Shown here: positions 12,199-28,414 of the stretch, in pieces
How positions within the stretch are numbered: position 1 is the first letter of the stretch
Layout of the letters: each line of letters opens with the position of its first letter
Virus record (IMG/VR): IMGVR_UViG_3300001919_000032
Span: 1 to 43,653 of that record
Reading direction: 5' to 3' (one strand)
DNA from: a virus
Length of the DNA stretch: 43,653 nucleotides
Notes under the pieces: model-generated
What the model saw: the letters and a program-made list of their open reading frames with translations, nothing else
Told to the model about the DNA's origin: nothing
Database searches by the model: none
Made by a program: the position numbers and the translations under genes

Positions 12199-12203
12199 CC
12201 GCC

Positions 12204-12572
12204 ATGAAAAAGATCCTTGCTGTTGTTGCTGCTGTGCTTGGGGTTTGCTTAAGCGTCAACGCATTTGCGTATCATCGTGTTGCAAAAGAATGGGTTGATG
12301 CAGAAGGAGTAAAGCATCAGGAACTTATCTTGGTTCCAGATCCTCCAGGAACAAAGTATGCCCCTTATAAATTGACGCGCGAGCAGGAGCTTAAAGCGGA
12401 TTATGAGCGGAAATTAAAAGAAATACAGGAAGAGCAACGCTGGCGCGATGAACACAATAAGTTCGTAGAAAACGGAACAATAGGAAAATACACCAATTAC
12501 TATAACCCTGTAACGAAGCAGAGTATTTTGGTAGATCCCAAAACCGGTACTATCAAAATAGATAAGCCTTAA
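12204..12572 (+). CDS. Secreted/periplasmic moron protein with signal peptide
   Basis: MKKILAVVAAVLGVCLSVNAFA looks like a signal peptide. The gene is AT-richer than its neighbours and has its own terminator downstream. Confidence 0.6.
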   Translation: MKKILAVVAAVLGVCLSVNAFAYHRVAKEWVDAEGVKHQELILVPDPPGTKYAPYKLTREQELKADYERKLKEIQEEQRWRDEHNKFVENGTIGKYTNYYNPVTKQSILVDPKTGTIKIDKP

Positions 12573-12590
12573 TGGGATTGGTTTAAATAG

Positions 12591-12623
12591 GAGCACCTCA
12601 AGAAATTGGGGTGCTTTTTTTTT
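12591..12623 (+). terminator. Intrinsic terminator after the moron gene
   Basis: Stem AGCACC / GGTGCT followed by a T9 run that abuts the ATG at 12624. Confidence 0.65.
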
Positions 12624-13745
12624 ATGGCACCAGAAAACGAAGTCACACTATATATAAACGGTCGTAAATATATTGGCTGGCGGTCTGTTCAAATTGATGT
12701 CAGTGTGAATTCTTTAGTTCGCGTATGCGAACTTGGTGCGGCACGAACTTCCAATAGAACGAGTCTTTGCGATGGCATAGAAGAAGGCGCTGATGCTGTT
12801 GTTAAAATAGGTTCTGATACTGTTTTGACAGGATATGTCGTTAGCAAAAAAGTTAGCTATTCTGAAAACAGCACACAGATCCAAATAACGATTAAAAGTA
12901 AAACCGTTGATTTGGAAGAATGCATGATTCCGCCAAAAAAACCAAATCAATGGAAAAATGCGCGGATTTCTTCAGTAATAAAAACGGTGGCTGGGTATTA
13001 CGGAATAGAAACAATTGATAATGGCTTAGCTAAAAACGCTCGGAATATTGATTTTTCTACCCACGAAACTATAGGCAAGGGGATCGTAAACCTGCTTAAA
13101 GCTGACAGCCTTCTTATAAATGATGATGAATTTGGTGATTTAGTTATATGCGATATTGGTCAAAATGGTGACGCTCATGACCAACTTATATATGGTAAAA
13201 ATATTTTGAGTGGGTCAAGGGACCACGATATATCAAAGGTTTTCAAAACATATGTTGTTATTGGGCAAGGCACAGATCCGGAAAGTAAAAGCAAAAATCC
13301 GGCAAATTCTTTGTCTGAGCCTTCGGAAAATGCAGAGTTTCCTAGAAATAGGGTCTTGGTTACTGAACAATCAGGAAATAGAACAAGAAAAGAGCTTAAA
13401 ACTAGAGCAGATAATTTAAAGTTCAATTCTGTAGGAAATGCGGATGTTTTAACCTATCAAGTGCAGGGTTGGCGGCAAAGCAACGGGGATTTGTGGAAAC
13501 AAAACATGAATGTCGTAGTAAAAGACCCAATGCTTGACATTAGCCAAACGCTCTTGGTTTCAAAAATTAGCTATAAGCTTGATCAAGACGGATCTACGAC
13601 AACGATGGTGCTGAAATCCCATTGGGCGTTTGCGGTGACGGATCTACCAGATGCCGAAAAAGGCAAAACGACCAAAAAAACTAAAACGAAGCAGGCCAAG
13701 AAAGGAACGACATTCCTTGCCAAAGCGGGGTCCGGCAAACTATGA
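12624..13745 (+). CDS. Baseplate hub protein (Mu gp44/gpP-like, late-control-D-like)
   Basis: The N-terminus EVTLYINGRKYIGWRSVQIDVSVNSL is typical of this family. It sits between the gp43-like and gp45-like genes and is AT-rich. Confidence 0.65.
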   Translation: MAPENEVTLYINGRKYIGWRSVQIDVSVNSLVRVCELGAARTSNRTSLCDGIEEGADAVVKIGSDTVLTGYVVSKKVSYSENSTQIQITIKSKTVDLEECMIPPKKPNQWKNARISSVIKTVAGYYGIETIDNGLAKNARNIDFSTHETIGKGIVNLLKADSLLINDDEFGDLVICDIGQNGDAHDQLIYGKNILSGSRDHDISKVFKTYVVIGQGTDPESKSKNPANSLSEPSENAEFPRNRVLVTEQSGNRTRKELKTRADNLKFNSVGNADVLTYQVQGWRQSNGDLWKQNMNVVVKDPMLDISQTLLVSKISYKLDQDGSTTTMVLKSHWAFAVTDLPDAEKGKTTKKTKTKQAKKGTTFLAKAGSGKL

Positions 13746-14275
13746 GCAACGGTCTGATTGATCTGGTCACGAGAGGAGTGCTGCTGGCCAAGAACGCTGC
13801 CCGGAAGATGCGGACGGTGCAGGTGCAGCTCTTCGCCGATGACCTGAGGGACGATGTCGAGCATTTTGAGCCGTATGGATTCACCTCTGAGGCCAAGACA
13901 GGCGCCGAGGTGCTTGCCGCATCCCTTGCCGGAGACAGAGAGCACACGATCGCATTCTGCATCACCGACCGACGCTACCGCCCCACGGGGCTCAAGGACG
14001 GCGAAGTTTGCGTTTTCGATGATCTGGGGCGAAAGGTCTATTTCTCCCGATCCGGGATCGTTGTCGAGGGCAAGGATTCGCCGGTGACAGTAAAGAGCTC
14101 TGGATCTGTGACGATTGACGCGCCCGAGACCACCATCACGGGCAAGCTGATTGTTACCGGGGACATTCAGGGCAAGGCTCAGGTCTACGACAGCAATGGC
14201 CGCCTGCAGGCCATCCGCGACACATACAACAGCCACACCCACAACGGCGGCTCGGCTCCCGATCAGAAGATGTGA
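13742..14275 (+). CDS. Baseplate assembly protein V / central spike (Mu gp45-like)
   Basis: 177 aa. ...VQVQLFADDLRDDVEHFEPYGFTS... and the C-terminal ...DTYNSHTHNGG are typical of gpV/gp45 spikes. Confidence 0.8.
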   Translation: MSNGLIDLVTRGVLLAKNAARKMRTVQVQLFADDLRDDVEHFEPYGFTSEAKTGAEVLAASLAGDREHTIAFCITDRRYRPTGLKDGEVCVFDDLGRKVYFSRSGIVVEGKDSPVTVKSSGSVTIDAPETTITGKLIVTGDIQGKAQVYDSNGRLQAIRDTYNSHTHNGGSAPDQKM

Positions 14276-14699: not shown

Positions 14700-14733
14700 C
14701 CCAGTCAGACGGGCATCTGGCTGGGCTTTTTTT
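14700..14733 (+). terminator. Intrinsic terminator-like hairpin (copy 1 of a duplicated element)
   Basis: CCCAGTCAGA cgggca TCTGGCTGGG followed by T7. The loop and stem are similar to the hairpin at 17748..17784. Confidence 0.65.
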
Positions 14734-14898: not shown

Positions 14899-15311
14899 TT
14901 CTGATGCTCAACGGCGTTGAGTCGACTTTGTCCGATTTTTGTGACGATGAGTTAAGACGGGCTGTGTACAACAGCCTTTTTTCATGGGCGCGGGCTTCGG
15001 ATTCAGACGAGCTCCCAGGGGACTCGAAGCAGGGATGGTGGGGGGACACCTACGCTGATGACCCCGGCGACAAGTTTGGGTCGAAGCTTTGGCTGCTGTC
15101 CCGCTCGAAGGTGACTCAGGAGACGCTGCTTAAAGCGCAGGAATACGCCGCGGCCGCCCTGCAGTGGATGATCGATGACGGCATCGCCAAAAGTGTTGAC
15201 GTGAGCGCAGAGCGCGGCGGCGCCGACCAGCTGAATCTTACGGTCACGATTCGGAAGCCCGGCGATTCAGATCTGATCGGCATGAGATTCCAGGACATTT
15301 GGAGCGAATGA
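14895..15311 (+). CDS. Baseplate protein (Mu gp46-like)
   Basis: ELRRAVYNSLFSWARA...GWWGD...GSKLWLLSRSK...AEEYAAAALQWM pattern is characteristic of the phage GP46 family. Confidence 0.8.
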   Translation: MILMLNGVESTLSDFCDDELRRAVYNSLFSWARASDSDELPGDSKQGWWGDTYADDPGDKFGSKLWLLSRSKVTQETLLKAQEYAAAALQWMIDDGIAKSVDVSAERGGADQLNLTVTIRKPGDSDLIGMRFQDIWSE

Positions 15312-16348
15312 TGGCATTTGTAAGACCAACGCTGCGGGAGCTGATTTCCCGCATCAGCTCGGGGATTCAATCGCGCCTGAGCGTTCCGCAGGTGCGCAGA
15401 AGCAACGCGACGGTTTATAGCCGGGTGCTGGCGGGGGCGAGTCATGAACTCCACGGCTTCATCGAATATGCGGCGAAGCAAATTCTTGTGGACACGGCAG
15501 ACTCCGAGCATCTCGACCGCCACGCCTCGATTTTCGGAATCACAAGAAAGGCGGCTTCAAAAGCTTCCGGAACTGTGAAATTCAGCTTTCAGGACGGCGT
15601 TGTGAACGTGCCTGTAGGAACCATTCTGCAGGGCGGAGATGAGCAGCAGTTTCAGGTGACTGTCGCTCCGGATTCGAGCGGCGTTGCGTCTGTTGAAGCT
15701 CTGGTGGCCGGCGAGGCGGGAAACATCGAATCGGGCGACGCGCTCACGCTGATCTCTCCGATTGAAGGCGTGATTTCCGAGGCCGAGTCTCAGGGTATAG
15801 CGGGCGGAGCCGATGCAGAGGACGATGAAAGCCTTCGGGCCCGCGTGCTTGCAAGGCAGAGAGAAACGCCGCATGGCGGAACGTCGGCTGACTATGTCCA
15901 GTGGGCGCTGGCCGTCCCGGGGGTGACTCGAGCCTGGTGCTATCCGCTCGAAAACGGGGATGGGACGGTTGTCGTGAGGTTTGTCTGCGACGATCTGGCT
16001 GACATTTCACCGACCACCGAAATGGTGAAGCAGGTCCAGGCCTATATCGACGAGAAGCGCCCTGTGACTGCCGATGTGACGGTTATGGGTCCGACGCTTA
16101 AGGCGGTCAATATCGAGATCAGCACTCTCACACCGGACACGTCCGATGTCAGGGCTGCGGTCGAGGCTGAGCTCAAGGACCTCTTCATGAAGGAAAGCGA
16201 GCCCTCGAGAAGCATCTATCTGTCGCACATAAGAGCGGCCATCTCCGCAGCCGCGGGCGAAGTCGACCACACTCTTGTTTCCCCGACTTCCAATCCGACG
16301 GCGGGGACTAATGAGCTGCTCACCCTGGGGACGATCACATGGAACTGA
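15308..16348 (+). CDS. Baseplate J-like protein (Mu gp47-like)
   Basis: About 346 aa, with position and sequence typical of the Baseplate_J family. Confidence 0.8.
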   Translation: MMAFVRPTLRELISRISSGIQSRLSVPQVRRSNATVYSRVLAGASHELHGFIEYAAKQILVDTADSEHLDRHASIFGITRKAASKASGTVKFSFQDGVVNVPVGTILQGGDEQQFQVTVAPDSSGVASVEALVAGEAGNIESGDALTLISPIEGVISEAESQGIAGGADAEDDESLRARVLARQRETPHGGTSADYVQWALAVPGVTRAWCYPLENGDGTVVVRFVCDDLADISPTTEMVKQVQAYIDEKRPVTADVTVMGPTLKAVNIEISTLTPDTSDVRAAVEAELKDLFMKESEPSRSIYLSHIRAAISAAAGEVDHTLVSPTSNPTAGTNELLTLGTITWN

Positions 16349-16962
16349 CGACGCAGGAAGAGTACTCCCGGATGCTGAAGCAGTTGCTTCCTCCTGGTCC
16401 AGCCTGGCCGAGGGGCGACGCCACATCCCTCATGGGCATGATGATCGAGGTTTGGGCCGAGGAGTTCAGCAGCGTTGATTCCCGAGTGCGGACGCTGATG
16501 CGAGAAGCCGACCCTCGCTTCGCGGTGGAGACGTTTGAGAACTGGCTGGACGACTGGGGATTGCCTGACGACTGCATTCGAGCCTGGTCCAGTGCCAATC
16601 AGACGACGCTGCGCACACTGCTCATGTACAAGATCAAGAACATCGGCAGGCAGGATCGGTCCTACTTTGTCGAGCTTGCAGAGATGTTCGGATACCGAAT
16701 CGTCATCGATGAGTTCCGCCAGCACTCCGTGCAGTCAACCTCAATGGACGCTGTCTGCGGGGAGAACTGGCGGCACATCTGGCGGGTCGACGTAATGACA
16801 GGGGCCGGGTCGGTTATGGGGTACCACAACACGCTGGGGCCGGTGAACGAGGCGCTCGCCTGGTGGGGCGACCGACTTATTGAGTGCCTGATCAAGCGGT
16901 ACAAGCCAGCTCATACCGACTTGTATTTCGGCTACTACAGCTTTGAAGGAGACAACGCGTAA
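16339..16962 (+). CDS. Mu gp48-like tail protein (DUF2313-like)
   Basis: The N-terminus ...EEYSRMLKQLLPPGPAWPRGD... is the hallmark of this family. Confidence 0.8.
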   Translation: MELTTQEEYSRMLKQLLPPGPAWPRGDATSLMGMMIEVWAEEFSSVDSRVRTLMREADPRFAVETFENWLDDWGLPDDCIRAWSSANQTTLRTLLMYKIKNIGRQDRSYFVELAEMFGYRIVIDEFRQHSVQSTSMDAVCGENWRHIWRVDVMTGAGSVMGYHNTLGPVNEALAWWGDRLIECLIKRYKPAHTDLYFGYYSFEGDNA

Positions 16963-17729
16963 TGGACAGAATCTTTCTTTCTGGCGCCGTGCAGAACGAG
17001 CCCAACATTCCCGATGACGTCGACCCGGGGTACCCGACTGATGGGTCGTCCGGTGGTGGGGTAGCGTCAACCATCCCTGGGGCGATCTGGTACAACGCGG
17101 TCATGATGGAGCTAATAAATGCCATCAAGGGCGGCGGCATCACGCCGGACCGGCACGACAATGCCCAGCTTGACGCAGCTATCAAAGCCCAAATCAAGTC
17201 TGTGAATCAGGCTCTGACAGACGCTGTTGCCCAGATCCAGGCAAAAGTTGCTCAAGTTGAAGTGGTCCCGCCCGGAGCAATCATGTTCTTCCCGACTTCT
17301 TCTTCTCCGAACGCAAACTGGCTTGTATGCAACGGCCAGGCGGTGAGCCGTTCGGCCTACGCGAACCTGTTCTCTGTGATCGGGACCAAATATGGCTCGG
17401 GTAACGGGAGCACGACATTCAATCTGCCATATCTGATCGACAAGACGGTGTGGGGCGGGCAGAGCAATGTAGGCGAGCAGAGAAGCGCGGGGCTTCCGAA
17501 CATAACTGGCGGCATCAAGGTCGCGGTTGACTCCGGCGGCGAACGCAATGCATGGGGCGCGGCTTATTACGGCGGAGCATACGACCCGAATTTCAGGCAT
17601 ATGAACGAGGGATATCACGAGTGGGGCAATGAAATCGTGTTCGATGCCTCTCGCTCCAACGGAATTTATGGACGGTCAGGAACAGTGCAGCCTCCGGCTC
17701 TCGTTTTGCTCCCCTGCATTCATATTTAG
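16962..17729 (+). CDS. Tail fibre protein with tail-collar domain
   Basis: PPGAIMFFP...NWLVCNGQAVSRSAYANLFSVIGTKYGSGNGSTTFNLPYL matches the phage tail collar domain. Confidence 0.8.
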   Translation: MDRIFLSGAVQNEPNIPDDVDPGYPTDGSSGGGVASTIPGAIWYNAVMMELINAIKGGGITPDRHDNAQLDAAIKAQIKSVNQALTDAVAQIQAKVAQVEVVPPGAIMFFPTSSSPNANWLVCNGQAVSRSAYANLFSVIGTKYGSGNGSTTFNLPYLIDKTVWGGQSNVGEQRSAGLPNITGGIKVAVDSGGERNAWGAAYYGGAYDPNFRHMNEGYHEWGNEIVFDASRSNGIYGRSGTVQPPALVLLPCIHI

Positions 17730-17747
17730 GCTTTTATTAGAAAGACA

Positions 17748-17784
17748 AGCCCCGCCCAGACGGCCATCTGAGCGGGGCTTTTTA
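17748..17784 (+). terminator. Intrinsic terminator-like hairpin (copy 2)
   Basis: AGCCCCGC ccagacggccatctga GCGGGGCT followed by T5. Confidence 0.7.
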
Positions 17785-17804
17785 TATGGAAATCGAGACT
17801 TTCC

Positions 17805-17978
17805 ATGAATGAAATTATACCCGTGCTGGCGGCACTTCTGCCGCTGAGAGAGGCCATGATGAAGCCAGACAAGGAACTTCCTGCTTATCTGCGAGTGCTG
17901 CGGTGGGGAGTGACGATATTTGTTCTCGCTTACGGGATCCTGCTTATTGCCGAGAAGATGAAAAGCATTTTCTTTTAG
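17805..17978 (+). CDS. Small membrane protein (paralogue of 14734..14898)
   Basis: 57 codons: ...MMKPDKELPAYLRVLRWGVTIFVLAYGILLIAEKM... A GAGAGAGG SD precedes the internal ATG ATG at 17856. The ORF ends 8 nt before the next fibre gene. Confidence 0.45.
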   Translation: MNEIIPVLAALLPLREAMMKPDKELPAYLRVLRWGVTIFVLAYGILLIAEKMKSIFF

Positions 17979-17986
17979 AGGTAAAG

Positions 17987-18826
17987 ATGAAGAGACTTTA
18001 TTACTCAGACGCGTCTGACACGCCGCCTTCTCCGCCTAAGAATCCGATCACAAATCAGTATCCGCAGGATGGAAACAGAGCGAAAAAGCAGATGCCGACA
18101 GTGATCGGGGCCTACTGGTACCACATGATCACCGAGGAGTTCATGGCGGTGATCGAACAGGCCGGGCTGGAGCCGTCGCTTACAAATCTGCATCAGCTGG
18201 CTGATGTCTTTGCCGACTTCAAAACGCGGGCTGCAGGGGCCGAGGCTTACAAAACAGCGGCTGAAGCGGCCGCGACCCGGGCTGAAACGGCTGCCAACGG
18301 CGTTGTCACTGAAACAGCATCAAAGATTCAAGAAATCGATGCTGAAGGTGATAAGCAGGTCAAAGCCGTCCAGGACGCCGGGTCGACTGTTTCGTCTGAC
18401 ATCGAAGCGGGGAAAACAGCCCTGCAGAGCAAGCTCACAGAGCTTATTGCACAGCTGGATGCAGAGGGAGGAACCGAGGCCGCGTACGTGAAGCAGCAGG
18501 CGCAGGACATCCTCGATCAGATCACAGCCTCTGAATCTAATGCCAAAACATACGCTGAAAATGCTGCGGCCAGCGCGTCCTCTGCTGTGACCACGGTTTC
18601 GGATGGAAAACAGGCGATAACAGATCTTCAGGCGGCTGCAACAGCGGCAGTACGGGCGCAGCAGACCACTTCTGTTAAAGCTGTGAGCGACGCTCAGAGC
18701 TCTGCGCAAACTGCTGTTGCATCCGCTCAGTCAACGGCTGTTTCTGCAGTCAAATCTCAGGAAACCGCGAGCATCCAGGCGATTGAGACAGAGATGGAGA
18801 CTATCGACCTCGGAGAGCTGTCATGA
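17987..18826 (+). CDS. Tail fibre shaft-like protein (Ala-rich coiled coil)
   Basis: The internal ATG at 17987 has an SD (agagg). The N-terminus ...PTVIGAYWYHMITEEFMAVIE... resembles fibre attachment domains. The rest is an Ala/Thr/Gln-rich repeat. The stop overlaps the next start. Confidence 0.6.
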   Translation: MKRLYYSDASDTPPSPPKNPITNQYPQDGNRAKKQMPTVIGAYWYHMITEEFMAVIEQAGLEPSLTNLHQLADVFADFKTRAAGAEAYKTAAEAAATRAETAANGVVTETASKIQEIDAEGDKQVKAVQDAGSTVSSDIEAGKTALQSKLTELIAQLDAEGGTEAAYVKQQAQDILDQITASESNAKTYAENAAASASSAVTTVSDGKQAITDLQAAATAAVRAQQTTSVKAVSDAQSSAQTAVASAQSTAVSAVKSQETASIQAIETEMETIDLGELS

Positions 18827-19185
18827 AATCCAAGTATCTGCAGCTTCGCGGCGGAACGACAGCCAAGAATGAAGCTTTCACCGGCAAAAGCAGGGAGCTG
18901 ACGGTCGACACGGACGAGAAGCGCCTTCGGGTCCATGACGGCACAACGGCCGGCGGCCATCCCGTAGCGAAAGCGTCCGAGATTCCAACAAAGACAAGCG
19001 AGCTTGAGAACGATGCTTACGAGACGAAGACCAGTCTCAGCAAGCTATCACAACTGACGGATGACGTGGGCTACTGGACGAAAACAGGTCTCACAAAACT
19101 GTCCCAGCTCACAAACGACAGCGGGTATCAGACCGGGCATTGCACCTACTGCACCTACTGTTCGTACTGCACAAACTGCACATGA
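18823..19185 (+). CDS. Fibre-tip-like protein 1: Mtd-like N-domain + LSQLTxDxGY repeats + Cys-triad tail
   Basis: LQLRGGTTAKNEAFTGKSRELTVDTDEKRLRVHDGTTAGG resembles the N-terminal domain of the Bordetella phage Mtd tropism determinant. The C-terminus is HCTYCTYCSYCTNCT, with 5 Cys spaced every 3 residues. Confidence 0.75.
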   Translation: MKSKYLQLRGGTTAKNEAFTGKSRELTVDTDEKRLRVHDGTTAGGHPVAKASEIPTKTSELENDAYETKTSLSKLSQLTDDVGYWTKTGLTKLSQLTNDSGYQTGHCTYCTYCSYCTNCT

Positions 19186-19193
19186 GGCTTTAG

Positions 19194-19706
19194 ATGTCTT
19201 TAAAGGAAATCTTGTGGAAGGGCGGAACGGCATCGCAAAACGATGCGTACACGGGAGACTCAGGCGAGATCACGATCGACACGGACAGCCACCGCATTCG
19301 CGTTCACGATGGCGAGACGCCAGGCGGCACGGCTCTGGCACTCGTGAGCGACATCCCGACAAAGCTCTCGCAATTGACGAATGACGCGGGAGCATGGGAG
19401 AAGGGGGCGCTCACGGCATTGTCCCAGCTGACGGATGACGTGGGCTACTGGAAGAAGGCGGATTTAACAAAGATTTCACAGCTTACTAACGACTCTGGAT
19501 TTCAAACCGGGCACTGTTCGTATTGCTCTTACTGCTCGTACTGTTCACAGTGCAATAACTGCCTCAATTGCAACACGGTTCAATGTACGACCGTGAACTG
19601 CACAACCGTAAATTGCACAACCGTTAAGTGTTCTGTTTATACAAACTGCAGTTACTGCAGCAACTGCAGCAACTGTGATTGCAACTGCAATTGTTGTGAC
19701 GCATAA
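19194..19706 (+). CDS. Fibre-tip-like protein 2 with 64-residue Cys-repeat tail (19 Cys)
   Basis: Same N-domain and repeats as protein 1. Tail: HCSYCSYCSYCSQCNNCLNCNTVQCTTVNCTTVNCTTVKCSVYTNCSYCSNCSNCDCNCNCCDA. Confidence 0.75.
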   Translation: MSLKEILWKGGTASQNDAYTGDSGEITIDTDSHRIRVHDGETPGGTALALVSDIPTKLSQLTNDAGAWEKGALTALSQLTDDVGYWKKADLTKISQLTNDSGFQTGHCSYCSYCSYCSQCNNCLNCNTVQCTTVNCTTVNCTTVKCSVYTNCSYCSNCSNCDCNCNCCDA

Positions 19707-19715
19707 GGGGCGGTC

Positions 19716-20207
19716 ATGGTTAAGAAAATTCTTTTAAAGAGAGGATCCACCGCCGCCACGGGAGCATACGCTGGGAAATCCCGCGAGGTCACCGTCAACA
19801 CAGACAAAAAAATCCTTGTTGTGCATGACGGAGTAACAGTGGGCGGAACGAGTCTTGCCAGGCTTTCAGAGTTGCCTACAAAACTATCTCAGCTGACAGA
19901 GGACAGCGGAATCTGGACAAAAAATGCTCTTACTCTTGCGAGCCTTACAGACGATGTTGGGTACTGGAAAAAGTCTGATCTAACAAAAGTCTCACAGCTC
20001 ACTAACGACAACAAATACAAGACCGCGCACTGCTCCTATTGCAGCCATTGCACGTACTGCTCTAACTGCGGGCGCTGCAACAACGTTCAATGCAGCCAGG
20101 TTCAATGCGGTCAGGTTCAATGCAATCAGGTGCAGTGTTCGCAATGTTCAGGGCAATGCACAAACTGTAGCAATTGTAGTGGCAGCAGTGACTGCTGCGA
20201 CAACTAG
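19716..20207 (+). CDS. Fibre-tip-like protein 3 with 59-residue Cys-repeat tail (16 Cys)
   Basis: Same architecture as proteins 1 and 2. Tail: HCSYCSHCTYCSNCGRCNNVQCSQVQCGQVQCNQVQCSQCSGQCTNCSNCSGSSDCCDN. Confidence 0.75.
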   Translation: MVKKILLKRGSTAATGAYAGKSREVTVNTDKKILVVHDGVTVGGTSLARLSELPTKLSQLTEDSGIWTKNALTLASLTDDVGYWKKSDLTKVSQLTNDNKYKTAHCSYCSHCTYCSNCGRCNNVQCSQVQCGQVQCNQVQCSQCSGQCTNCSNCSGSSDCCDN

Positions 20208-20216
20208 GGGGGATTT

Positions 20217-21107
20217 ATGAAAAAAATAGCAGCGTGCGCCCTTGAAGACCACAATCATTTTGTCAATATTTTCGTTACTGACGAGGCCATGAGTGTTGCG
20301 CTATTTTCGCCGTATAGCGGGGATCAGGACGCGATCTCTTCTGACCAGTGCGGAACCTTTTTGAATCAGCACAACACATCCCCCTTCATGCTCAATAACG
20401 GAATCGTTGTGGCGGGAGCAGACCTCAAGGAAGGTCTGGCAGGCAAATTCATCTGCATTGGAAAAACTACGTATTTTTCCAACCCTGTTGCCGCAAAAAA
20501 TGCTTCTGTAGAGTGTTATGGGAGCGGGGAAATCACGGATCGTCGCTCCATGGCGTGGTTTGTAAAAAATGGATGGCTTTCTGCCCCGACCACTCGTAAC
20601 CCGATGAGCTACTTCACGAAAGCAGGGACGATGCGCACTTTGCAGCTTGAACGCATGCAGCTTGCGGTACAGCTCATTATGCCGTTTGCCTCTGAGTCGG
20701 TGACGAGCGACTACAACAGCATTCAGTTCAACTACTCTCCCACATACGGGTATCGTTGCAACCTTCCTGTTGAAGAATTCACGCTTGAACAGCTCCAGAA
20801 TCACGGGAACGGATGGTCTCCGAACCCGGTTTTGGCTCTTTCTGGTCCTGAATCGACCGAGGAAGACAAAGATGCGGAATTCTCTGTCTCCATGTCATGG
20901 GAAGACGGAACAGCAATTGAACACGATTCTGAAATTTATATTGATTCCACCGGTGGATACGTTCCTCTGCGCAGGCTTGTACTGAGCAATGGAGTGGGTA
21001 AATTCCGCATCCGGGCTCTGGGTCTCAAGGCAGGCGAGTCGTTCAAGGTGAAGGTGGGATGGCGGTATTTCACTGGTGCGGCTGAAAAGACGGTGCTCGT
21101 TGTATGA
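20217..21107 (+). CDS. Hypothetical protein of the fibre/rSAM cluster (possible Ig-like C-terminus)
   Basis: 296 aa, with an SD (gggggg) upstream and an ATGA overlap with the first rSAM gene. The C-terminus ...GVGKFRIRALGLKAGESFKVKVGW... looks like a beta-sandwich. Confidence 0.55.
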   Translation: MKKIAACALEDHNHFVNIFVTDEAMSVALFSPYSGDQDAISSDQCGTFLNQHNTSPFMLNNGIVVAGADLKEGLAGKFICIGKTTYFSNPVAAKNASVECYGSGEITDRRSMAWFVKNGWLSAPTTRNPMSYFTKAGTMRTLQLERMQLAVQLIMPFASESVTSDYNSIQFNYSPTYGYRCNLPVEEFTLEQLQNHGNGWSPNPVLALSGPESTEEDKDAEFSVSMSWEDGTAIEHDSEIYIDSTGGYVPLRRLVLSNGVGKFRIRALGLKAGESFKVKVGWRYFTGAAEKTVLVV

Positions 21108-21997
21108 TCCGGCGCCTGAATATCGTACTGGGTGCGGCATGCAATAGGCATTGCTCCTACTGTTGCCAGGCGGCTCCCGCAGACAGGTTGTCATGTGGAA
21201 AAACAGACTGGTCGGGTCTCAGAAAAAAGCTTCGCTTTTATAACGAGAATGGCGCCTTCAGAAAGCTTGAGCGCATCAGTTTCTGGGGCGGAGAACCCAT
21301 GCTTTATTGGGGCGTTGTTAAGGCGCTCTACCAGGTTCTGTGTGACGACGGCGTTTATCCAGACTCTATTTACCGGGTTGCTACAAACGGGGATCTTATA
21401 AACGAAGATTACGTGCAGTTCGCCAACAGCACCCCAGGGTGGTTGACAACGGTGAGTTGGCACGATGGTTCTATATCAGAGAGCCAGTGGTCAGTTCTGA
21501 GACGTCTTGATAACTGCTTTATAACGGGTCTGGTCACGAGCCGGTGGAGGGATGAAATTCCCGCCATGAGAGATAAATATGACTCTCTTGGTCTGAGTCT
21601 GCCGGTACAGCTATGGCCAGTCCACTTTGTGGGCCAGTGCTCTGAGGATGACAAACTCACCGCTAAAAGCGTTGATGATGCCCTTGAGTACATTCGAATC
21701 CTTGTTGCCCATGCATCCAGGCGCGGGCGAGAGAGGCCTGATTGTGGGGACGAGTCGGTTCTAACAGTTGATTTACATGGCCGTGAATACCTGTGCCAAC
21801 ACAATCCGTCGCCTGAGACATTGAGTTCTCATAGTCGACTGTACCGGGCTGAAACCGTCAGAAAAGGATGTCGCGAATGCGTTGCCTGGGACCATTGCGG
21901 AGGCGGATGTTTTCTTACTTCAAATCGAAAAGCGGAGTGCCGGTTCTACCGGGAATACGTTCGGCTAGGGAGATCTTTGAATGAAACTGCGTCTTAA
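21104..21997 (+). CDS. Radical SAM enzyme with SPASM domain (1)
   Basis: CNRHCSYC is the CX3CX2C cluster motif at residues 13-20, and FWGGEPMLYW is the SAM-binding GGEP motif. The C-terminal C-X13-G-X4-C ... CRECVAWDHCGGGC (CX2CX5CX3C) ... C gives the full 7-Cys SPASM signature. Confidence 0.85.
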   Translation: MIRRLNIVLGAACNRHCSYCCQAAPADRLSCGKTDWSGLRKKLRFYNENGAFRKLERISFWGGEPMLYWGVVKALYQVLCDDGVYPDSIYRVATNGDLINEDYVQFANSTPGWLTTVSWHDGSISESQWSVLRRLDNCFITGLVTSRWRDEIPAMRDKYDSLGLSLPVQLWPVHFVGQCSEDDKLTAKSVDDALEYIRILVAHASRRGRERPDCGDESVLTVDLHGREYLCQHNPSPETLSSHSRLYRAETVRKGCRECVAWDHCGGGCFLTSNRKAECRFYREYVRLGRSLNETAS

Positions 21998-23219
21998 TGT
22001 TAGGGAGCGAGATGGATCGCGCCACGTATGGGAATACGACAACGTGACGAACGAACTGTGGCGAGAGGGCGTACTTCTTGATCTGTCGAAAGATGAGCGC
22101 TTATCACAGTATATGAGCGGCCAGACTCACAGAGCACAGGTTTTCTCCGACAGCAAGAGCAAGGATCTCTACGATCTGAGAATACAGTTAGGTCTTCGCT
22201 GCAACATGCATTGTCGTTATTGCGCGCAGTCGGATCGAGCTTTAGAGAAGGCGTGCTGGGGGCCCAAGGACGTACCCGCGTTCATCGCAAAACTCAAGGC
22301 CGGCAACGTCAATGTGACTGGCGTCATCGAACTCTGGGGTGGAGAGCCTTTTGTTTATTGGAAGACTATTAAAAATCTTGTCCCTCAGTTGCGCGAAATG
22401 TATCCCAACGTCCGGTTTGCCATGATCACAAATGGGACGCTTCTAACTGAAGACAAGATTTCATTCTGCGAGAAATATCGTATTGATCTTACATTTAGTC
22501 ATGATGGACAGGGCTATCGGCTCCGCGGTGCGGATCCCCTGGACGATCCAAAAATGGTTGATCTGTGGAGGCTTGCGTTCTCAAAACTTCGCTGCAACAT
22601 CAATTGCGTTCTATCCCCGGCAAATACAGATATAGAGCAGATCATTGAACACATTCATTCCCGACTCGGGGCTGTGCCTATCAACTTCGAAGGCATCATG
22701 ACCCATGTAGGAGTGACAGATAAAGAATTGATGTTCTCAGACAAGCAGTTGCTCACGCTCCAAAAAAACATTTTTACAGCAATGACATCCGGACCGTGGG
22801 CTAAATTTCCGGCGCTGGAGCAGCAGTGCCGCAGCCTTATCCAGATGCTAGTGAATCGAAAGAGACTGAACCCGAGAGCAGTTAAGTGCTGCATGCATTC
22901 TCCTGATAATGCTGCAGTTAATCTCAACGGAGATGTACTTTCTTGCCACGATCATTGCACACCGGACAAGTTTGTCGGGAGGATAGAGGACCTGGAGGGC
23001 GTGGATATCTCTCGCTGTTTTAAACCATGGTGTGAGAGGCCGGAGTGCCGCAAATGCCTCGTTCTGTCCATGTGCCGCGGCGCCTGCCCGCAGATTGAGG
23101 GGCTGGCAAGGACGCTCACATGCAAAAACGAGGGTGCTTACAAGTTTGCTGTCTTCCAGGCTGTTATCTGGCTGCTGTTTGGCCTGACGCTGGAGTCGTA
23201 TGCACCGGTGGAGGGCTGA
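21981..23219 (+). CDS. Radical SAM enzyme with SPASM domain (2), with ~70-aa N-terminal extension
   Basis: Carries CNMHCRYC (CX3CX2C), LWGGEPFVYW, C-X12-G-X4-C ... CRKCLVLSMCRGAC ... C. The C-terminus FAVFQAVIWLLFGLTL is hydrophobic. Confidence 0.85.
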   Translation: MKLRLNVRERDGSRHVWEYDNVTNELWREGVLLDLSKDERLSQYMSGQTHRAQVFSDSKSKDLYDLRIQLGLRCNMHCRYCAQSDRALEKACWGPKDVPAFIAKLKAGNVNVTGVIELWGGEPFVYWKTIKNLVPQLREMYPNVRFAMITNGTLLTEDKISFCEKYRIDLTFSHDGQGYRLRGADPLDDPKMVDLWRLAFSKLRCNINCVLSPANTDIEQIIEHIHSRLGAVPINFEGIMTHVGVTDKELMFSDKQLLTLQKNIFTAMTSGPWAKFPALEQQCRSLIQMLVNRKRLNPRAVKCCMHSPDNAAVNLNGDVLSCHDHCTPDKFVGRIEDLEGVDISRCFKPWCERPECRKCLVLSMCRGACPQIEGLARTLTCKNEGAYKFAVFQAVIWLLFGLTLESYAPVEG

Positions 23220-23251
23220 CCATGTGCACGTCAGAAACTTTTTACAACCGA

Positions 23252-23278
23252 GCGGCCGCCCGAATAGGCGGCTTTTTT
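23252..23278 (+). terminator. Intrinsic terminator after the rSAM genes
   Basis: GCCGCC cgaata GGCGGC followed by T6. Confidence 0.7.
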
Positions 23279-23533: not shown

Positions 23534-23743
23534 ATGGGTGGCATCTATATGGAAGATGATACCAAAGAAAGATTAGACAGACTAGAGGCTTTTATGGATG
23601 AGCAAAGGTTGGAAAAAGTTCAGCAAGCCGCCATTGATAACTACAAAAAAGAGCGTTTCCATTATTGGAAAGAGAGAGTCTTAGTCGCTTGCGCTCTTAT
23701 CGGAGGTGTTCTCGGCGTAATCGGGTTCGTCCGATCACTGTGA
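23534..23743 (+). CDS. Small membrane protein of the lysis cassette (holin/antiholin candidate)
   Basis: 69 aa with a coiled N-terminus and a C-terminal TM segment, VLVACALIGGVLGVIGFV. It lies directly upstream of the endolysin. An alternative start is at 23549. Confidence 0.5.
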   Translation: MGGIYMEDDTKERLDRLEAFMDEQRLEKVQQAAIDNYKKERFHYWKERVLVACALIGGVLGVIGFVRSL

Positions 23744-23763
23744 GGACTCAGGGAGCTTTTCTC

Positions 23764-24225
23764 ATGAATCGCTATCAAATAGCAGCCATGACCGTATCAG
23801 CCGCCACGTTGGTAGGGATCGCCGGGTACGAAGGCTATTCCTCGGTGGCTTATGTTCCGGTAAAGGGCGATGCCCCGACTATCGGATGGGGTACGACAAC
23901 GGGAGTGAAGAAAGGCGATACTATCGAGCCGACACAGGCGCTCCAGAGACTGTACCGGGATACCGAGATGGCGAAGGCCGGAATAAGTAACTGCATCAAA
24001 GTCCCGATAAGCCAAGGGGAACTAGATGCGTATCTGTCGCTTTCTTACAACATCGGGGCCGGGGCGTTTTGCAAGTCGACGCTTGTGAAGAGGCTGAACC
24101 GCGGCGATTACGCCGGAGCGTGCTCGGAGATTAAGCGCTGGTGCTACTTCAAGGGAAAAAAGTTACCCGGTTTAGTCGAGAGAAGAGAGAAGGAATACCG
24201 GACGTGCTTGAGGGGGCAGCCATGA
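23764..24225 (+). CDS. Endolysin, GH24 lysozyme with SAR-like N-terminus
   Basis: GYEGYSSVAYVPVKGDAPTIGWGTT carries the E-X8-D-X5-T catalytic triad. The weakly hydrophobic N-terminus IAAMTVSAATLVGIAG resembles a signal-arrest-release domain. Confidence 0.85.
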   Translation: MNRYQIAAMTVSAATLVGIAGYEGYSSVAYVPVKGDAPTIGWGTTTGVKKGDTIEPTQALQRLYRDTEMAKAGISNCIKVPISQGELDAYLSLSYNIGAGAFCKSTLVKRLNRGDYAGACSEIKRWCYFKGKKLPGLVERREKEYRTCLRGQP

Positions 24226-24804: not shown

Positions 24805-25227
24805 CTATTCTTTAACGCTCAAATCGAGCGACCCGCCCAATTTTTTCAAAGCTTCCTCAACCGTATCAATACTGGCGCTGTCCCTCGTAAGGTCGACAAG
24901 CCTGCTTGCTTCTGAGTGTGAGACGCCGAGTTTTTTTGCTACATCAGAGATCTTCAGTCCTTTGCTTTTCATGAAGTTCCAAAACAGCATTTTCGCCTGT
25001 ATTCTGGCAGGGACAGAAATTCCAACCTCGCCCTTCCGCAATTCGCTGGGGAGCGGGAAGGGGAGCTGTTTCTTTCTATAAAACAGAACAAGTGTCCCCG
25101 GAAGCATCTGGCTTGCCCAGTCCAACGCCTCTTTTTCTGTATCCGCGTCATAAACGCACTCCGGGATATCCCGGCATGTCACTTCGAACCCTCCATCCTT
25201 TGGCAGTACCTTGATTCCGTAGCGCAT
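24805..25227 (-). CDS. HicB-like antitoxin with C-terminal XRE-type HTH (copy 1)
   Basis: MRYGIKVLPKDGGFEVTCRDIPECVYDADTEKEALDWASQML resembles the HicB N-domain. ...LKISDVAKKLGVSHSEASRLVD looks like an HTH. It is a paralogue of 41890..42315. Confidence 0.7.
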   Translation of the reverse strand: MRYGIKVLPKDGGFEVTCRDIPECVYDADTEKEALDWASQMLPGTLVLFYRKKQLPFPLPSELRKGEVGISVPARIQAKMLFWNFMKSKGLKISDVAKKLGVSHSEASRLVDLTRDSASIDTVEEALKKLGGSLDLSVKE

Positions 25228-25847: not shown

Positions 25848-27200
25848 ATGAGAGTGGCAAACCGAATGACTGAAAAGCGGCTGAAAGCCTTGACAGCAGA
25901 CGCTTCGTGCGGTGTTGTGCCGGGGCTTTATGTGTCTGTCAGGAGGCTCAAGGACGGTTCATACGCGAAGTATTTCCTGCTTCGTGAGCGCAGCCTGAAG
26001 CGTGTATTCACACTAGGTAAATTCCCTGAGATGACCTTGGCCGAGGCATTCGAAAAAGGAAGGTTGTGGAAAAAGAAGATTGCTGAGGGGATTGACCCGG
26101 CCAAGGAAGAGAAGGCCGCGATGGAGGCGTTGCGTCCTGCAGACCCGGGCAAAGAAGAGAACGTTCTGACTTTCGAAAAGCTGATATGGAAGTGGATCGA
26201 GTTCAATGAAAAGCGCGGCCGGTGGAAGAACGCGAACAAATCCCGGGATCAGGTTTGGACGGGGTTCTTCAGGAATCACATCCCGCAGGAGATCCGCGAC
26301 TGCCCGGTTGTGGATTTGACTCCGCAGATGTTTTGCGACGCGTTAGGAGAGAAGTGGCGTACCATGATTGACACGCCGGAGCGCATTCTCGGTGACGCGA
26401 AGCGGGCGATCGATTGGGCGATACGCTCCGAGATGGTCCCACCGATGGTGAACCCGTGCCAGGTTGTCGACGGGCGCCTTGGAGATCTGCTTCCGCTTGA
26501 TCGTCCAGAAGGAGGCCATGAGCCCGCTCTGCCGCCAAAACGCATGCCAGAGTTTTTCAAGGCTCTGATGAAGCTTGTTCCGGTGAGCCAGACGGCCAGA
26601 TGTCTCGCGTTTGCCATCCTAACGTCGGCTCGCAACACGACAGCCCGCGAGGCCACCTGGGGGGAGATACAGAAAGACGACAACGACCAGTGGCTACATG
26701 TCATTCCCCGGACTCGCATGAAGGTTAAGAGCGAGAAGATTCCGTTTGATCGAAAGACGCCGCTTTGTGAAGAGGCGGTTCAGTTGATCAGGACGGCGCC
26801 GCGGATGGGAAATGATCCGGATGACTATATCTTCCCGAATGTCAACAAGGGGCATAGCTCGCCGTTTACGCGCGACGCCGTTCGTGCGCTTATCAAGCGC
26901 ATGCATGACAAGCAGCGAAAAATCGACGGCATCGGCTGGGTGGATCCTGATCAGTTCCATGCGAAGACCGGCAAGCCCCGCATAGTGACGCTTCACGGCC
27001 TCGCCCGAGCGACGTTCAACACTTGGGCCAAGGATGCCAAGGGATACGGCCACAAGCCGTTCTCGCGCGATTTAAGGGAGAGTTGCCTCGATCACCGAAA
27101 CGAGTCCTACCAGTGTGCCTACGACCGGGAGCAGGCTCTGGGGGACATGAGGGAGGTCTATGACGCCTGGGGAAAGTTCTGTGCTTCTTTATGCCGCTAG
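25848..27200 (+). CDS. int: Tyrosine integrase (P4-type, N-terminal arm-binding domain)
   Basis: ...LKALTAD...VPGLYVSVRRLKDGSYAKYFLLR...LGKFPEMTLAEAFEKG is arm-binding-domain-like. The C-terminus has HGLARATF and a terminal Tyr region. The gene is adjacent to the tRNA fragment. Confidence 0.85.
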   Translation: MRVANRMTEKRLKALTADASCGVVPGLYVSVRRLKDGSYAKYFLLRERSLKRVFTLGKFPEMTLAEAFEKGRLWKKKIAEGIDPAKEEKAAMEALRPADPGKEENVLTFEKLIWKWIEFNEKRGRWKNANKSRDQVWTGFFRNHIPQEIRDCPVVDLTPQMFCDALGEKWRTMIDTPERILGDAKRAIDWAIRSEMVPPMVNPCQVVDGRLGDLLPLDRPEGGHEPALPPKRMPEFFKALMKLVPVSQTARCLAFAILTSARNTTAREATWGEIQKDDNDQWLHVIPRTRMKVKSEKIPFDRKTPLCEEAVQLIRTAPRMGNDPDDYIFPNVNKGHSSPFTRDAVRALIKRMHDKQRKIDGIGWVDPDQFHAKTGKPRIVTLHGLARATFNTWAKDAKGYGHKPFSRDLRESCLDHRNESYQCAYDREQALGDMREVYDAWGKFCASLCR

Positions 27201-27962
27201 TTGTTCTGTATATTTTTCTTTTTGGCTCCAAACTATGGGGATTGTCTGATAGTTATTTAATGGATTTATTACGGTGTCTTCATTAGCGGCAATTTCTTGA
27301 TCATTTATTACTACATAAAGGCGGCTTTCTTCTTTTCTGTTTATTTTTGTGTCTGTCCAAGACCACAAAATTTGCTGGGTTATGCTCTTGTTAGGGGTGT
27401 TCATAATCCTTAAAAGCCTTTCAGGATTATTTTTTGATTTTGGAATTGCAAAATCAAATTTATAAGATAATGAAGATCTGCCAATTAACTGAATATTTGG
27501 TATATATCGCACATTATTTATATCAAGCCAGTCTTTTACATCGTCAAAAAAGAAAGAAAACGCTTGTTCCTTTGATGTGTAAAACAGATCACTAACACTC
27601 AGCATTGCTTGAATAAGGTTGTTCATATGCAAGCCAAGCGAGTTTTTATCGCCAACATTAACTTTTGTAATCAACTCTCCATCTTTTTCTGTAATGCCGA
27701 AACCGCGAAGAGTTACTTCAAGCAAAGATTTCCGTTTCCCAGAGCTTAAATCAACGCCAGAGCACAACAGGTCGTTTAATATCTCTCCAGCGTCTGTTAA
27801 ACAATATTCATTTTTATTTTTAGTAATATAAATTTGAATTTTATCATTGTGCCGGTCTAAAAAAGGAGTGGTGATTTCTGTATATTCACCATGGCTGCGC
27901 TGAGCACTTTTTAGTTGAGATTTAAGCCAGTCTATATATTCATTTGCGAAGTCTTCCATCAA
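27189..27962 (-). CDS. Hypothetical protein, DUF1828/DUF1829-like (AT-rich cargo gene)
   Basis: 257 aa; ...EITTPFLDRHNDKIQIYITKNKNEYCLTDAGE... resembles DUF1828 N-domains. One sampled 60-nt line (27421..27480) counted about 23% GC; the rest of the gene looks similarly AT-rich by eye. Confidence 0.45.
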   Translation of the reverse strand: MMEDFANEYIDWLKSQLKSAQRSHGEYTEITTPFLDRHNDKIQIYITKNKNEYCLTDAGEILNDLLCSGVDLSSGKRKSLLEVTLRGFGITEKDGELITKVNVGDKNSLGLHMNNLIQAMLSVSDLFYTSKEQAFSFFFDDVKDWLDINNVRYIPNIQLIGRSSLSYKFDFAIPKSKNNPERLLRIMNTPNKSITQQILWSWTDTKINRKEESRLYVVINDQEIAANEDTVINPLNNYQTIPIVWSQKEKYTEQLAA

Positions 27963-28414
27963 AATAACTCCTCATTTCCAGAAATATCTTCTGCAAATAA
28001 AACCGCTCTTACATTGAAGCGCTTCATAAAATCTTCTAAACTTTTTTTGGGATCATCTGGATCTCGTATCCATTTAACTGGCAAAGCAACTTTGTCGCCA
28101 TATTTTTCAGAATATAAATGTATGTGTGGCGCGCCTATTTCTGTGCCATCGGGGTTTCTGTGTTCTCCATACATATCTAACCTAGCAAGAACTGTTGATG
28201 TTCTTACACGCAATTGAGCTTTTATTTTTAGAATTATTCTTTTTTGTGAAATATCAAAAATAAATTTCTCTTTTAAGCTCTTTGATTCCAAGGGAACAAT
28301 GATCGGTTCTTTCTCTAAGTGCTTGGTGGTAAAAAGCTCAGACGTTGTCCTCGTCTTTTCCGTCTCCAAAAGAACTTTAGCTCTTTCGTCAGATATAACC
28401 GCTTTTTTCATCAT
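27959..28414 (-). CDS. Hypothetical protein co-transcribed with 27189..27962
   Basis: 151 aa, ATGA-coupled to the downstream gene. Conserved-looking core: LDMYGEHRNPDGTEIGAPHIHLYSEKYGDKVALP. Confidence 0.5.
   Translation of the reverse strand: MMKKAVISDERAKVLLETEKTRTTSELFTTKHLEKEPIIVPLESKSLKEKFIFDISQKRIILKIKAQLRVRTSTVLARLDMYGEHRNPDGTEIGAPHIHLYSEKYGDKVALPVKWIRDPDDPKKSLEDFMKRFNVRAVLFAEDISGNEELF

Follow-up and report, generated by a model that had tools for sequence, protein, structure and literature searches.

What two different radical S-adenosylmethionine (SAM) enzymes of the SPASM type are doing at the distal end of a phage tail-fibre operon is the question raised by the IMG/VR virus record IMGVR_UViG_3300001919_000032. 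The window, by which we mean the whole analysed stretch of 43,653 nt, encodes a large terminase, a tail sheath, a Mu-type baseplate (GpP, Baseplate_J and Gp48), a lysozyme, a DUF2514 protein and an integrase, and it is a temperate myovirus with a Mu-type baseplate. Downstream of the baseplate, the genes are arranged in the order of collar fibre, coiled shaft, three small tip proteins, a protein here called p296, the two enzymes (enzymes 1 and 2), a terminator and the lysis cassette (Table 1). The answer that we consider probable is that the C-terminal cysteine tails of the tail-fibre tip proteins undergo a maturation resembling that of peptides made by the ribosome and modified post-translationally (RiPPs), most likely by thioether cross-links; the phages probably modify the very tips used for touching their hosts.

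The gene linkage that carries this answer has been established in both directions. Relatives of enzyme 2 were found in at least 564 IMG/VR contigs and 316 species-representative bacterial genomes, as well as in the cultured phages JWF and 2-1 of Achromobacter and RSP15 of Ralstonia. In 85 loci of such relatives, we counted open reading frames (ORFs) with a cysteine ladder, CxCxCxC, within 20 residues of the ORF end, and regarded as nearby the ORFs located on the same strand and at most 4.5 kb upstream. The ladder was carried by 67 of the 969 nearby ORFs versus 3 of the 4354 other ORFs, and these three adjoin displaced p296 and enzyme-1 genes. When 80 independent bacterial genomes were used, the ladder tails were present in 46 of 3003 same-strand ORFs versus 0 of 3178 opposite-strand ORFs. 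The reverse scan, which started from IMG/VR DNA encoding NCNCNCNC, gave 61 loci where a real ORF has this sequence in frame at its C-terminus, and an enzyme-2 relative is encoded in every one of the 37 loci having at least 3.5 kb downstream. As in RiPP clusters, the putative precursors are adjacent to the maturase gene and their conserved motif co-varies with it. The structural context is also established; in every inspected locus, the module is part of the late structural operon, with tail-fibre or baseplate genes on one side and the lysis cassette on the other.

The ladder tails near enzyme-2 relatives typically end in ...NCNCNCxC, and examples are ...SYSNCNCNCDCQCYC, ...DSNCNCNCNCNCGG, ...FNCNCNCNCRC and ...ANCDCRCNCNCDGGDDSR. 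Between the ladder cysteines, Asn was counted 139 times, Ala 38, Asp 24 and Arg 19. The three tip proteins of the window are paralogous, sharing in their alignment the Mtd_N domain, SQLTND-type repeats and long cysteine-repeat tails. Cys occurs at every third residue in the tail of tip protein 1, which is encoded by a 9-bp tandem repeat (19141–19181), and the tail of tip protein 2, 64 residues long, has Cys at spacings of three, five and two residues and is encoded by 9-bp and 15-bp tandem repeats. Because tip protein 2 carries the family-wide CxCxCxC ladder, it is the best candidate substrate. The initial annotation treated the fibre-tip proteins as possible substrates, and the linkage between ladder and enzyme 2 supports this proposal at the sequence level; we infer, then, that the tails are what the enzymes act on. 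Its suggestion that the N-terminal domains of the tip proteins are the parts to test for binding is not supported, since these domains vary among the putative substrates (Mtd_N, a "MAYKVGTT" type, T4 gp36-like fibre and collagen-like fibres) and the conserved feature is the C-terminal ladder. Small precursors of other lineages have a PT-x-LSQFTNDLGNYG repeat in common with the SQLTND repeats of the window, and no family was found for them in NCBIfam, Pfam and PHROG scans.

The ladder is not restricted to small proteins; it ends full-length fibres of 370–615 aa in loci L002 (370 aa), L064 and L080 (615 aa) and in gp028 of Achromobacter phage JWF. In JWF gp028 (L087, 4676–6127), the ladder ...NCNCDCNCNCS-C|FPAGT... 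runs into a Hint domain (Hom_end_hint, 47.5 bits, above the gathering score), and a 275-aa protein of L034 (5659–6486) likewise has a ladder followed by a Hint domain above the Pfam gathering score. An ORF of L058 (5217–6071) has a ladder and then a putative Hint domain with sub-threshold matches only (Vint, 18.6 bits versus a cut-off of 27). In all three proteins, the first Hint cysteine extends the ladder, and to judge from these sequences, self-cleavage, which may involve a thioester intermediate, would make the ladder C-terminal. Since cleavage in JWF gp028 and the L034 protein would expose the ladder at the C-terminus, its terminal position appears to be what matters. Self-cleaving domains are familiar from phage fibres and spikes (the Peptidase_S74 chaperone and Hint), from which the tip proteins of the window differ in that they end at the ladder itself.

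Several other observations concern the tails. Tandem repeats in the tail-coding DNA are located at 19141–19181, 19513–19543, 19590–19624, 19644–19675 and 20085–20131, the 9-bp unit giving Cys at every third residue and the 15-bp unit at every fifth; because short tandem repeats encode the tails, tail length could vary by slippage. In two loci of the window clade (L010, 3677–4609; L014, 4239–5153), orthologs of the tip proteins have an extension of about 145 aa past ...CNCDCTDDS, starting with CFVSGKLE; it was not recognised by Pfam, as Hint or otherwise, and is missing from the proteins of the window. Two AT-rich phage loci (L052, 8–739; L067, 781–1488) have two enzyme-2-like genes and encode proteins with very long internal (C-K)n ladders of more than 30 repeats, the motif in an extreme form. 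Three consecutive paralogous tip proteins with ladder tails are found also in L068, L071, L074, L077 and L081, which belong to unrelated lineages, and three paralogs in a row could form a heterotrimeric tip or serve as three alternative tips.

The class of the two enzymes and their cluster motifs are established by the following findings. Both have the radical SAM motif CX3CX2C, for the SAM-cleaving [4Fe-4S] cluster, and the complete SPASM pattern of seven cysteines, CX9-15GX4C ... CX2CX5CX3C ... C, for two auxiliary clusters. Both ORFs and their overlap of 17 nt (21981–21997) were confirmed as described in the initial annotation, and so was the statement that they are two distinct enzymes; the identity between them is 38% and is limited to the first ~100 residues of the core. 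Enzyme 2 matches the Pfam model Radical_SAM (PF04055) with 38.7 bits, above the gathering score, and its AlphaFold2 model (mean predicted local distance difference test, pLDDT, 92.3) has the barrel fold. Its SPASM cysteines (C303, C322, C356, C359, C365, C369 and C381) are invariant in 49 relatives, and relatives pass the cut-off of the SPASM model TIGR04085 with 30.5–39 bits. Enzyme 1, whose cluster cysteines C13, C17 and C20 (CNRHCSYC) are preceded by no N-terminal domain as first noticed, gives E = 9e-6 for PF04055 (26.4 bits, slightly under the gathering score of 29.5) and 18.6 bits for TIGR04085 versus a cut-off of 27. Its SPASM cysteines, C214-x11-G-x4-C231 ... C256-x2-C259-x5-C265-x3-C269 ... 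C279, are all invariant among its homologs. The family of enzyme 1 is much smaller than that of enzyme 2.

By homology, both are placed in an uncurated family of SPASM enzymes that modify peptides or proteins, and they look like RiPP maturases rather than sulfatase maturases. The best full-length NCBIfam match of enzyme 2 is the PapB ranthipeptide maturase model NF047865 (E = 3.6e-20, 72.5 bits versus a cut-off of 340), and the SCIFF maturase model TIGR03974 gives 52.8 bits versus a cut-off of 425; no SCIFF-type peptide is present at the locus. The initial view that they are not anaerobic sulfatase-maturing enzymes (anSMEs) is supported, because the model TIGR03942 gives 48.8 bits for enzyme 2 and 19.5 for enzyme 1 versus a cut-off of 349, and the C/S-x-P/A-x-R motif is absent, as had been stated, from the tails of all three tip proteins. 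No sulfatase gene was seen in the surveyed neighbourhood of 14–27 kb. When the AlphaFold2 model of enzyme 2 was compared with PDB folds, the top matches were CteB (5wgg), anSME, ChlB and SuiB, and the top PDB sequence-profile matches were TigE, CteB and anSME. TigE is a cyclopropylglycine synthase, which forms C–C bonds (PMC10878394). The PHROG family 1802 and BFVD label relatives only as "radical SAM" or "Fe-S oxidoreductase".

Enzyme 2 has an N-terminal extension, for which a PqqD-like RiPP recognition element (RRE) had been suggested. The extension itself exists, is conserved and is a feature of enzyme 2 alone; the cluster cysteines C74, C78 and C81 come after 73 residues, and the extension is present in all 49 aligned relatives, down to ~30% identity, with a consensus starting M-x-x-x-L ... 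DG ... (W/R)-x-YDN/YNP-x-T and a near-invariant Y19. A canonical RRE is a winged helix-turn-helix of about 80–90 aa, consisting of three beta-strands and then three helices. Residues 1–70 of enzyme 2 are modelled with short beta-strands at 2–8, 14–20 and 25–28, one seven-residue helix at 39–45 and then a linker, and in distant relatives the extension is only ~55 residues long, with a proline-rich coil past the strands. No match to PqqD (PF05402) was obtained when 26 N-terminal segments were searched against Pfam at E<=10, no RRE-containing chain was matched when the N-terminal profile was searched against PDB sequences at E<=10, and the profile alignments of enzyme 2 to CteB and TigE start only at query positions 37–53. 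Because of the three strands with a single helix, the shortness in distant relatives and the lack of PqqD or RRE matches in these searches, the extension is not a canonical RRE; the model presents it as a family-specific three-stranded beta mini-domain (residues 1 to ~60), for which a minimal strand-docking role is possible. At the other end, the "hydrophobic C-terminal end" noticed at first is conserved across the family; the last 33 residues are family-specific and contain a long helix (374–400) and a strand (403–409) with pLDDT of ~95. A membrane anchor was considered for this end and is not supported, since it is amphipathic, conserved and confidently modelled as a packed helix and strand.

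The third core gene, p296, accompanies the enzymes in many loci. Its profile finds 546 cluster representatives (50% identity), mostly of 240–320 aa, and it is present in 58 of 80 viral and 45 of 80 genomic loci of the enzyme-2 family. The order of p296, enzyme 1 and enzyme 2 is kept in ~40 loci fetched through enzyme 1, the exceptions being L306 and L309, with no enzyme 2 within the flank, and L359, an incomplete locus. No match to p296 was found in Pfam, NCBIfam and PHROG, and the search of its profile against PDB sequences gave nothing significant. Its AlphaFold2 model, built on an alignment of six sequences, has a pLDDT of 46.6 and is confident only for residues ~205–295; because the usable part is the C-terminal ~90 residues and the Foldseek matches to it are generic immunoglobulin (Ig)-like folds, we do not assign a function from them.

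Enzyme 1 appears to be exchangeable. In most other lineages, the slot between precursor and enzyme 2 is occupied by 2-oxoglutarate (2OG)-Fe(II) oxygenases (PF13759); enzyme 1 only, a 2OG oxygenase only and both were found in 25, 29 and 1 viral loci and in 9, 30 and 0 genomic loci, respectively, and both occur together in a few additional loci that were retrieved by way of enzyme 1. From these neighbourhood counts, enzyme 2, p296 and the ladder protein are regarded as the core and enzyme 1 as an interchangeable accessory, and a division of labour between the two enzymes can be inferred. Further conserved genes without a Pfam match were noticed in the accessory slot, namely L088 4994–5824 (RSP15 ORF046) and the clusters c35, c36 and c25 in L029–L032; c25 has a faint match to Asp/Asn beta-hydroxylase (E = 0.02).

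The oxygen sensitivity of such enzymes was initially taken as a hint at an anaerobic or microaerophilic host. The nearest hosts are gut Sutterellaceae (Mesosutterella, Parasutterella, Duodenibacillus and Sutterella), and the phage of the window probably infects a Mesosutterella-like gut betaproteobacterium. Most family members are, however, prophages of aerobic Alpha- and Betaproteobacteria (Rhodobacterales, Bradyrhizobium, Variovorax, Magnetospirillum and Limnohabitans), and others are phages grown on Achromobacter and Ralstonia; the enzymes alone are therefore no sign of an anaerobic host, and the hint was a weak one. A strict swap of enzyme 1 for 2OG oxygenases between anaerobic and aerobic hosts was also considered and rejected, because the genomes of Methylobacterium, Tagaea and Aestuariivirga also contain enzyme 1 and it coexists with an oxygenase in a few loci.

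If these findings are put together, the maturation module at the distal end of the tail-fibre operon would have the three small tip proteins as its substrates. Enzyme 2 would be the core maturase, whose radical SAM cluster and two auxiliary SPASM clusters would abstract hydrogen atoms in the ladder, the target being the extreme C-terminal (C-x)n, where Asn, Asp or Ala is found most often at x. Cysteine sulfurs would be joined to carbons of neighbouring residues as thioethers of the sactipeptide, ranthipeptide or QhpD type, and the outcome would be a compact knot at the fibre tip, resistant to reduction and protease. Enzyme 1 would be a second, accessory maturase with a tailoring role; p296 would be an obligatory partner, with a role in docking, as a chaperone or as a structural part of the tip, and the extension of enzyme 2 may dock the substrate by strand addition. 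Both the thioether chemistry and the effect on the fibre are speculative. Thioethers are the most likely product because most characterised SPASM enzymes acting on Cys-rich substrates make them (CteB, PapB, QhpD and NxxcB), and because Asn, the acceptor of NxxcB, and Asp, an acceptor of PapB and QhpD, fill the alternate positions of the ladder. As a tentative generalisation, to which we give slightly less than even weight, the three-gene core of Cys-ladder tip protein, p296 and N-extended SPASM enzyme would produce a cross-linked (N/D-C)n knot for stability or receptor engagement, possibly with covalent cross-links between chains, and interchangeable accessories would tailor it.

Known systems resemble the proposed one in part. 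PapB and NxxcB are radical SAM/SPASM enzymes acting on repeated Cys motifs, with Asp/Glu and Asn, respectively, as acceptors, and Asn and Asp prevail at the x positions of the ladder; their substrates are leader-core peptides with CX3D or NxxC spacing, whereas here phage structural-protein domains have the motif at the extreme C-terminus, with Cys at every second residue, and there is a partner protein of ~300 aa. QhpD, whose model matches enzyme 2 with E = 4e-13 (NCBIfam), puts several Cys-Asp/Glu thioethers into a small structural subunit (QhpC), not into a secreted peptide, but that system has an unrelated enzyme family, serves a periplasmic dehydrogenase (the gamma subunit of quinohemoprotein amine dehydrogenase) and has neither a Cys ladder nor a phage link. 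CteB, the SCIFF maturase, is the best PDB fold match and, like sactipeptide synthases, makes thioethers on Cys-rich peptides; it has a full N-terminal RRE, unlike enzyme 2 with its three-stranded mini-domain and enzyme 1 with none. The anSMEs share the three-cluster SPASM architecture, the lack of an RRE, a protein substrate and a full-length fold and profile match, but here there is neither a sulfatase nor a CxPxR/CxAxR motif, and the cut-off of their model is missed.

Several points weigh against maturation by thioether cross-links. Identity to every characterised enzyme is only ~16–20% and all NCBIfam equivalog cut-offs are missed widely; homology does not settle the chemistry, because the nearest relative by PDB profile, TigE, makes C–C bonds. 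In the window clade, the tails consist mainly of CxxC and CxxxxC repeats with a short CxCxC segment, and tip proteins 1 and 3 are without the full CxCxCxC ladder. A row of ladder thiols on one face of a beta-strand might bind metal instead. Finally, the enzyme 1 copy of the window may, judging from its 16-aa internal deletion, be impaired. This deletion is a clean in-frame loss of 48 bp at 21704–21706 (codon 201) in comparison with the nearest relative of the window, a prophage in Mesosutterella sp. AGMB02718, and with all close homologs (312–313 aa); the lost segment, ...ANPQDRFSA(V/F)LRKSII..., separates the radical SAM core from the SPASM domain, and TTGT microhomology is found on both flanks. 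No enzyme 1 gene is called in the Mesosutterella prophage, and the idea that the prophage is without enzyme 1 was rejected because an intact ORF of 313 aa is present there.

Among other explanations, the likeliest one keeps the fibre tails as substrates and changes the chemistry to an anSME-like or other oxidative type, such as formylglycine at Cys C-beta, dehydrogenation, epimerisation or C–C links. In addition to anSME being among the best full-length fold and profile matches, TIGR03942 aligns to residues 71–373 of enzyme 2 (E = 5e-13), the top PDB profile match TigE forms C–C bonds, and the frequent 2OG oxygenases in the accessory slot suggest redox tailoring in the pathway. We consider it unlikely, because the tails lack the sulfatase motif, the anSME score of enzyme 2 is far below its cut-off, a virion surface bearing many reactive aldehydes would be out of the ordinary, and the aforementioned precedent of SPASM enzymes on Cys-rich substrates is one of thioethers.

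Next is the explanation that the ladder, on the axis of a fibre tip that is a trimer, serves primarily to bind metal or an iron-sulfur cluster; the enzymes would then act indirectly, for example by delivering clusters, making one priming modification or behaving much like a chaperone. Alternating residues of a beta-strand face one side, so that CxCxCxC would form a row of thiols, and three tip paralogs per locus, in the window clade and in the other loci listed above, would fit a trimer. The fibres gp37 and gp12 of T4 have established HxH sites for iron and zinc, which are similar in that a trimeric phage fibre has a short motif of alternating residues at its distal end, and different in using histidine instead of cysteine and in needing no dedicated modifying enzymes. 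Binding alone would need no such enzymes here either, yet the linkage to the tails is 37 of 37; SPASM enzymes are catalysts with no known metallochaperone role, and a surface thiolate–metal site would be unstable in the oxic habitats of most hosts. These points make a metal site improbable.

A secreted RiPP, either a bacteriocin or a signalling peptide carried as a prophage moron, would have the Cys tails as core peptides that are cleaved from "leaders" and exported. One or more precursor genes followed by radical SAM/SPASM genes do look like RiPP clusters, many precursors are as small as 55–120 aa, and there is more than one precursor paralog per locus. Against this, neither a leader peptidase nor an exporter was found in the window or the inspected loci, the N-terminal parts are tail-fibre domains (Mtd_N and fibre repeats), the ladder ends fibres of 370–615 aa in several phages, and the module is inside the late structural operon even in JWF and RSP15, whose inspected regions have no integrase; we regard a secreted product as quite improbable. 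It is hardly credible that the two enzymes have nothing to do with the fibres and merely happen to stand at the operon end, as radical SAM proteins with, for example, a nucleotide-modifying or antiviral/anti-defence role might. The moderate partial matches to prokaryotic viperin models (enzyme 2, E = 5e-10; enzyme 1, E = 8e-8) are limited to the first ~100 residues of the radical SAM core, both enzymes have full SPASM domains, which are absent from viperins, and the association in both directions with Cys-ladder proteins and p296, seen in hundreds of unrelated phages, speaks against chance.

We found the module neither as a curated family in the searched libraries nor in a paper of the searched literature, where the matches were unrelated radical SAM genes. 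The system thus appears to be undescribed there, and its distinctive features are the ladder motif, p296, the placement at the tail-fibre tip and the interchangeable oxidative accessories. To our knowledge, no post-translational modification of a virion structural protein by a radical enzyme has been known, and the proposed maturation, if true, would be the first. It would then represent a new RiPP-like class defined on proteins instead of peptides, and host recognition would hinge on an enzymatic step that is hidden from view, in a large group of phages from a wide range of environments. These phages infect Sutterellaceae in the gut, Rhodobacterales in the sea, Bradyrhizobium and Variovorax in soil, and the cultured hosts Achromobacter and Ralstonia. 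For phage engineering and therapy, this would mean that fibres made without the maturases may be non-functional. In the prediction of receptor-binding proteins, the ladder and its enzymes can mark the tip, and for enzyme discovery the system offers a new SPASM family with a new substrate motif and a partner protein. It is open to study in cultured pairs that are grown aerobically, namely JWF or 2-1 with Achromobacter and RSP15 with Ralstonia.

Table 1. Genes and signals of the tail-fibre and maturation region in the window
Feature	Position	Strand	Basis
Tail fibre protein with tail-collar domain, 255 aa	16962..17729	+	Pfam Collar PF07484, E = 4e-19
Fibre shaft protein, rich in alanine and coiled coil	17903..18826	+	PHROG 6859 tail fiber protein, E = 2.5e-6
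Fibre-tip protein 1, 120 aa; Mtd_N, SQLTND repeats, tail HCTYCTYCSYCTNCT	18823..19185	+	Mtd_N PF18454, E = 5e-12
Fibre-tip protein 2, 170 aa; Mtd_N, Cys-rich tail ending ...CSNCSNCDCNCNCCDA	19194..19706	+	Mtd_N, E = 4e-8
Fibre-tip protein 3, 163 aa; Mtd_N, Cys-rich tail ending ...CTNCSNCSGSSDCCDN	19716..20207	+	Mtd_N, E = 3e-8
p296, protein of a ~300-aa family, third core gene; C-terminal Ig-like beta-sandwich	20217..21107	+	Profile search, AlphaFold2, Foldseek
Enzyme 1, short radical SAM/SPASM enzyme, 297 aa; putative accessory maturase	21104..21997	+	Pfam, NCBIfam, homolog alignment
Enzyme 2, core radical SAM/SPASM enzyme, 412 aa	21981..23219	+	Pfam, NCBIfam, alignment, AlphaFold2, fold and profile searches
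Intrinsic-terminator-like hairpin, GGCCGCC-CGAATA-GGCGGC then TTTTTT	23254-23273	+	35 nt past the stop of enzyme 2

The collar fibre gene is immediately 3' of the Mu-type baseplate genes (Baseplate_J and Mu Gp48). The shaft protein probably starts at an ATG near 17987, because its Mesosutterella ortholog is 279 aa long. In the aforementioned Mesosutterella prophage, enzyme 2 is 97% identical and the gene order is identical; when the 6.4-kb module was searched at the DNA level against 50,697 phage records, the sole match was ~100 bp in the collar domain. The gene of enzyme 1 overlaps also that of p296, by 4 nt (21104–21107). The hairpin closes the transcription unit of fibre and maturase genes ahead of the lysis cassette, where the phage lysozyme is encoded at 23665–24225. 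It had been described as the only terminator of the cluster, and this is correct for the fibre module, where it is the sole strong plus-strand candidate over ~15000–23254, but not for the whole tail operon, which has others at 14700 and 14959.

Two minor observations concern other parts of the window. The GC content is 0.44–0.46 in the baseplate region 12001–14000, which contains the GpP-like gene (12606–13745), and 0.39 just past the integrase (27001–28000), and these dips against ~0.57 in the remaining structural operon suggest mosaic acquisition. Between the lysis cassette and the integrase, an ORF of 140 aa on the minus strand (24805–25227) has a weak C-terminal match to HTH_3 (E = 1e-4, just below the cut-off), and its N-terminal half looks HicB-like by eye, so that it could be a candidate antitoxin or regulator.

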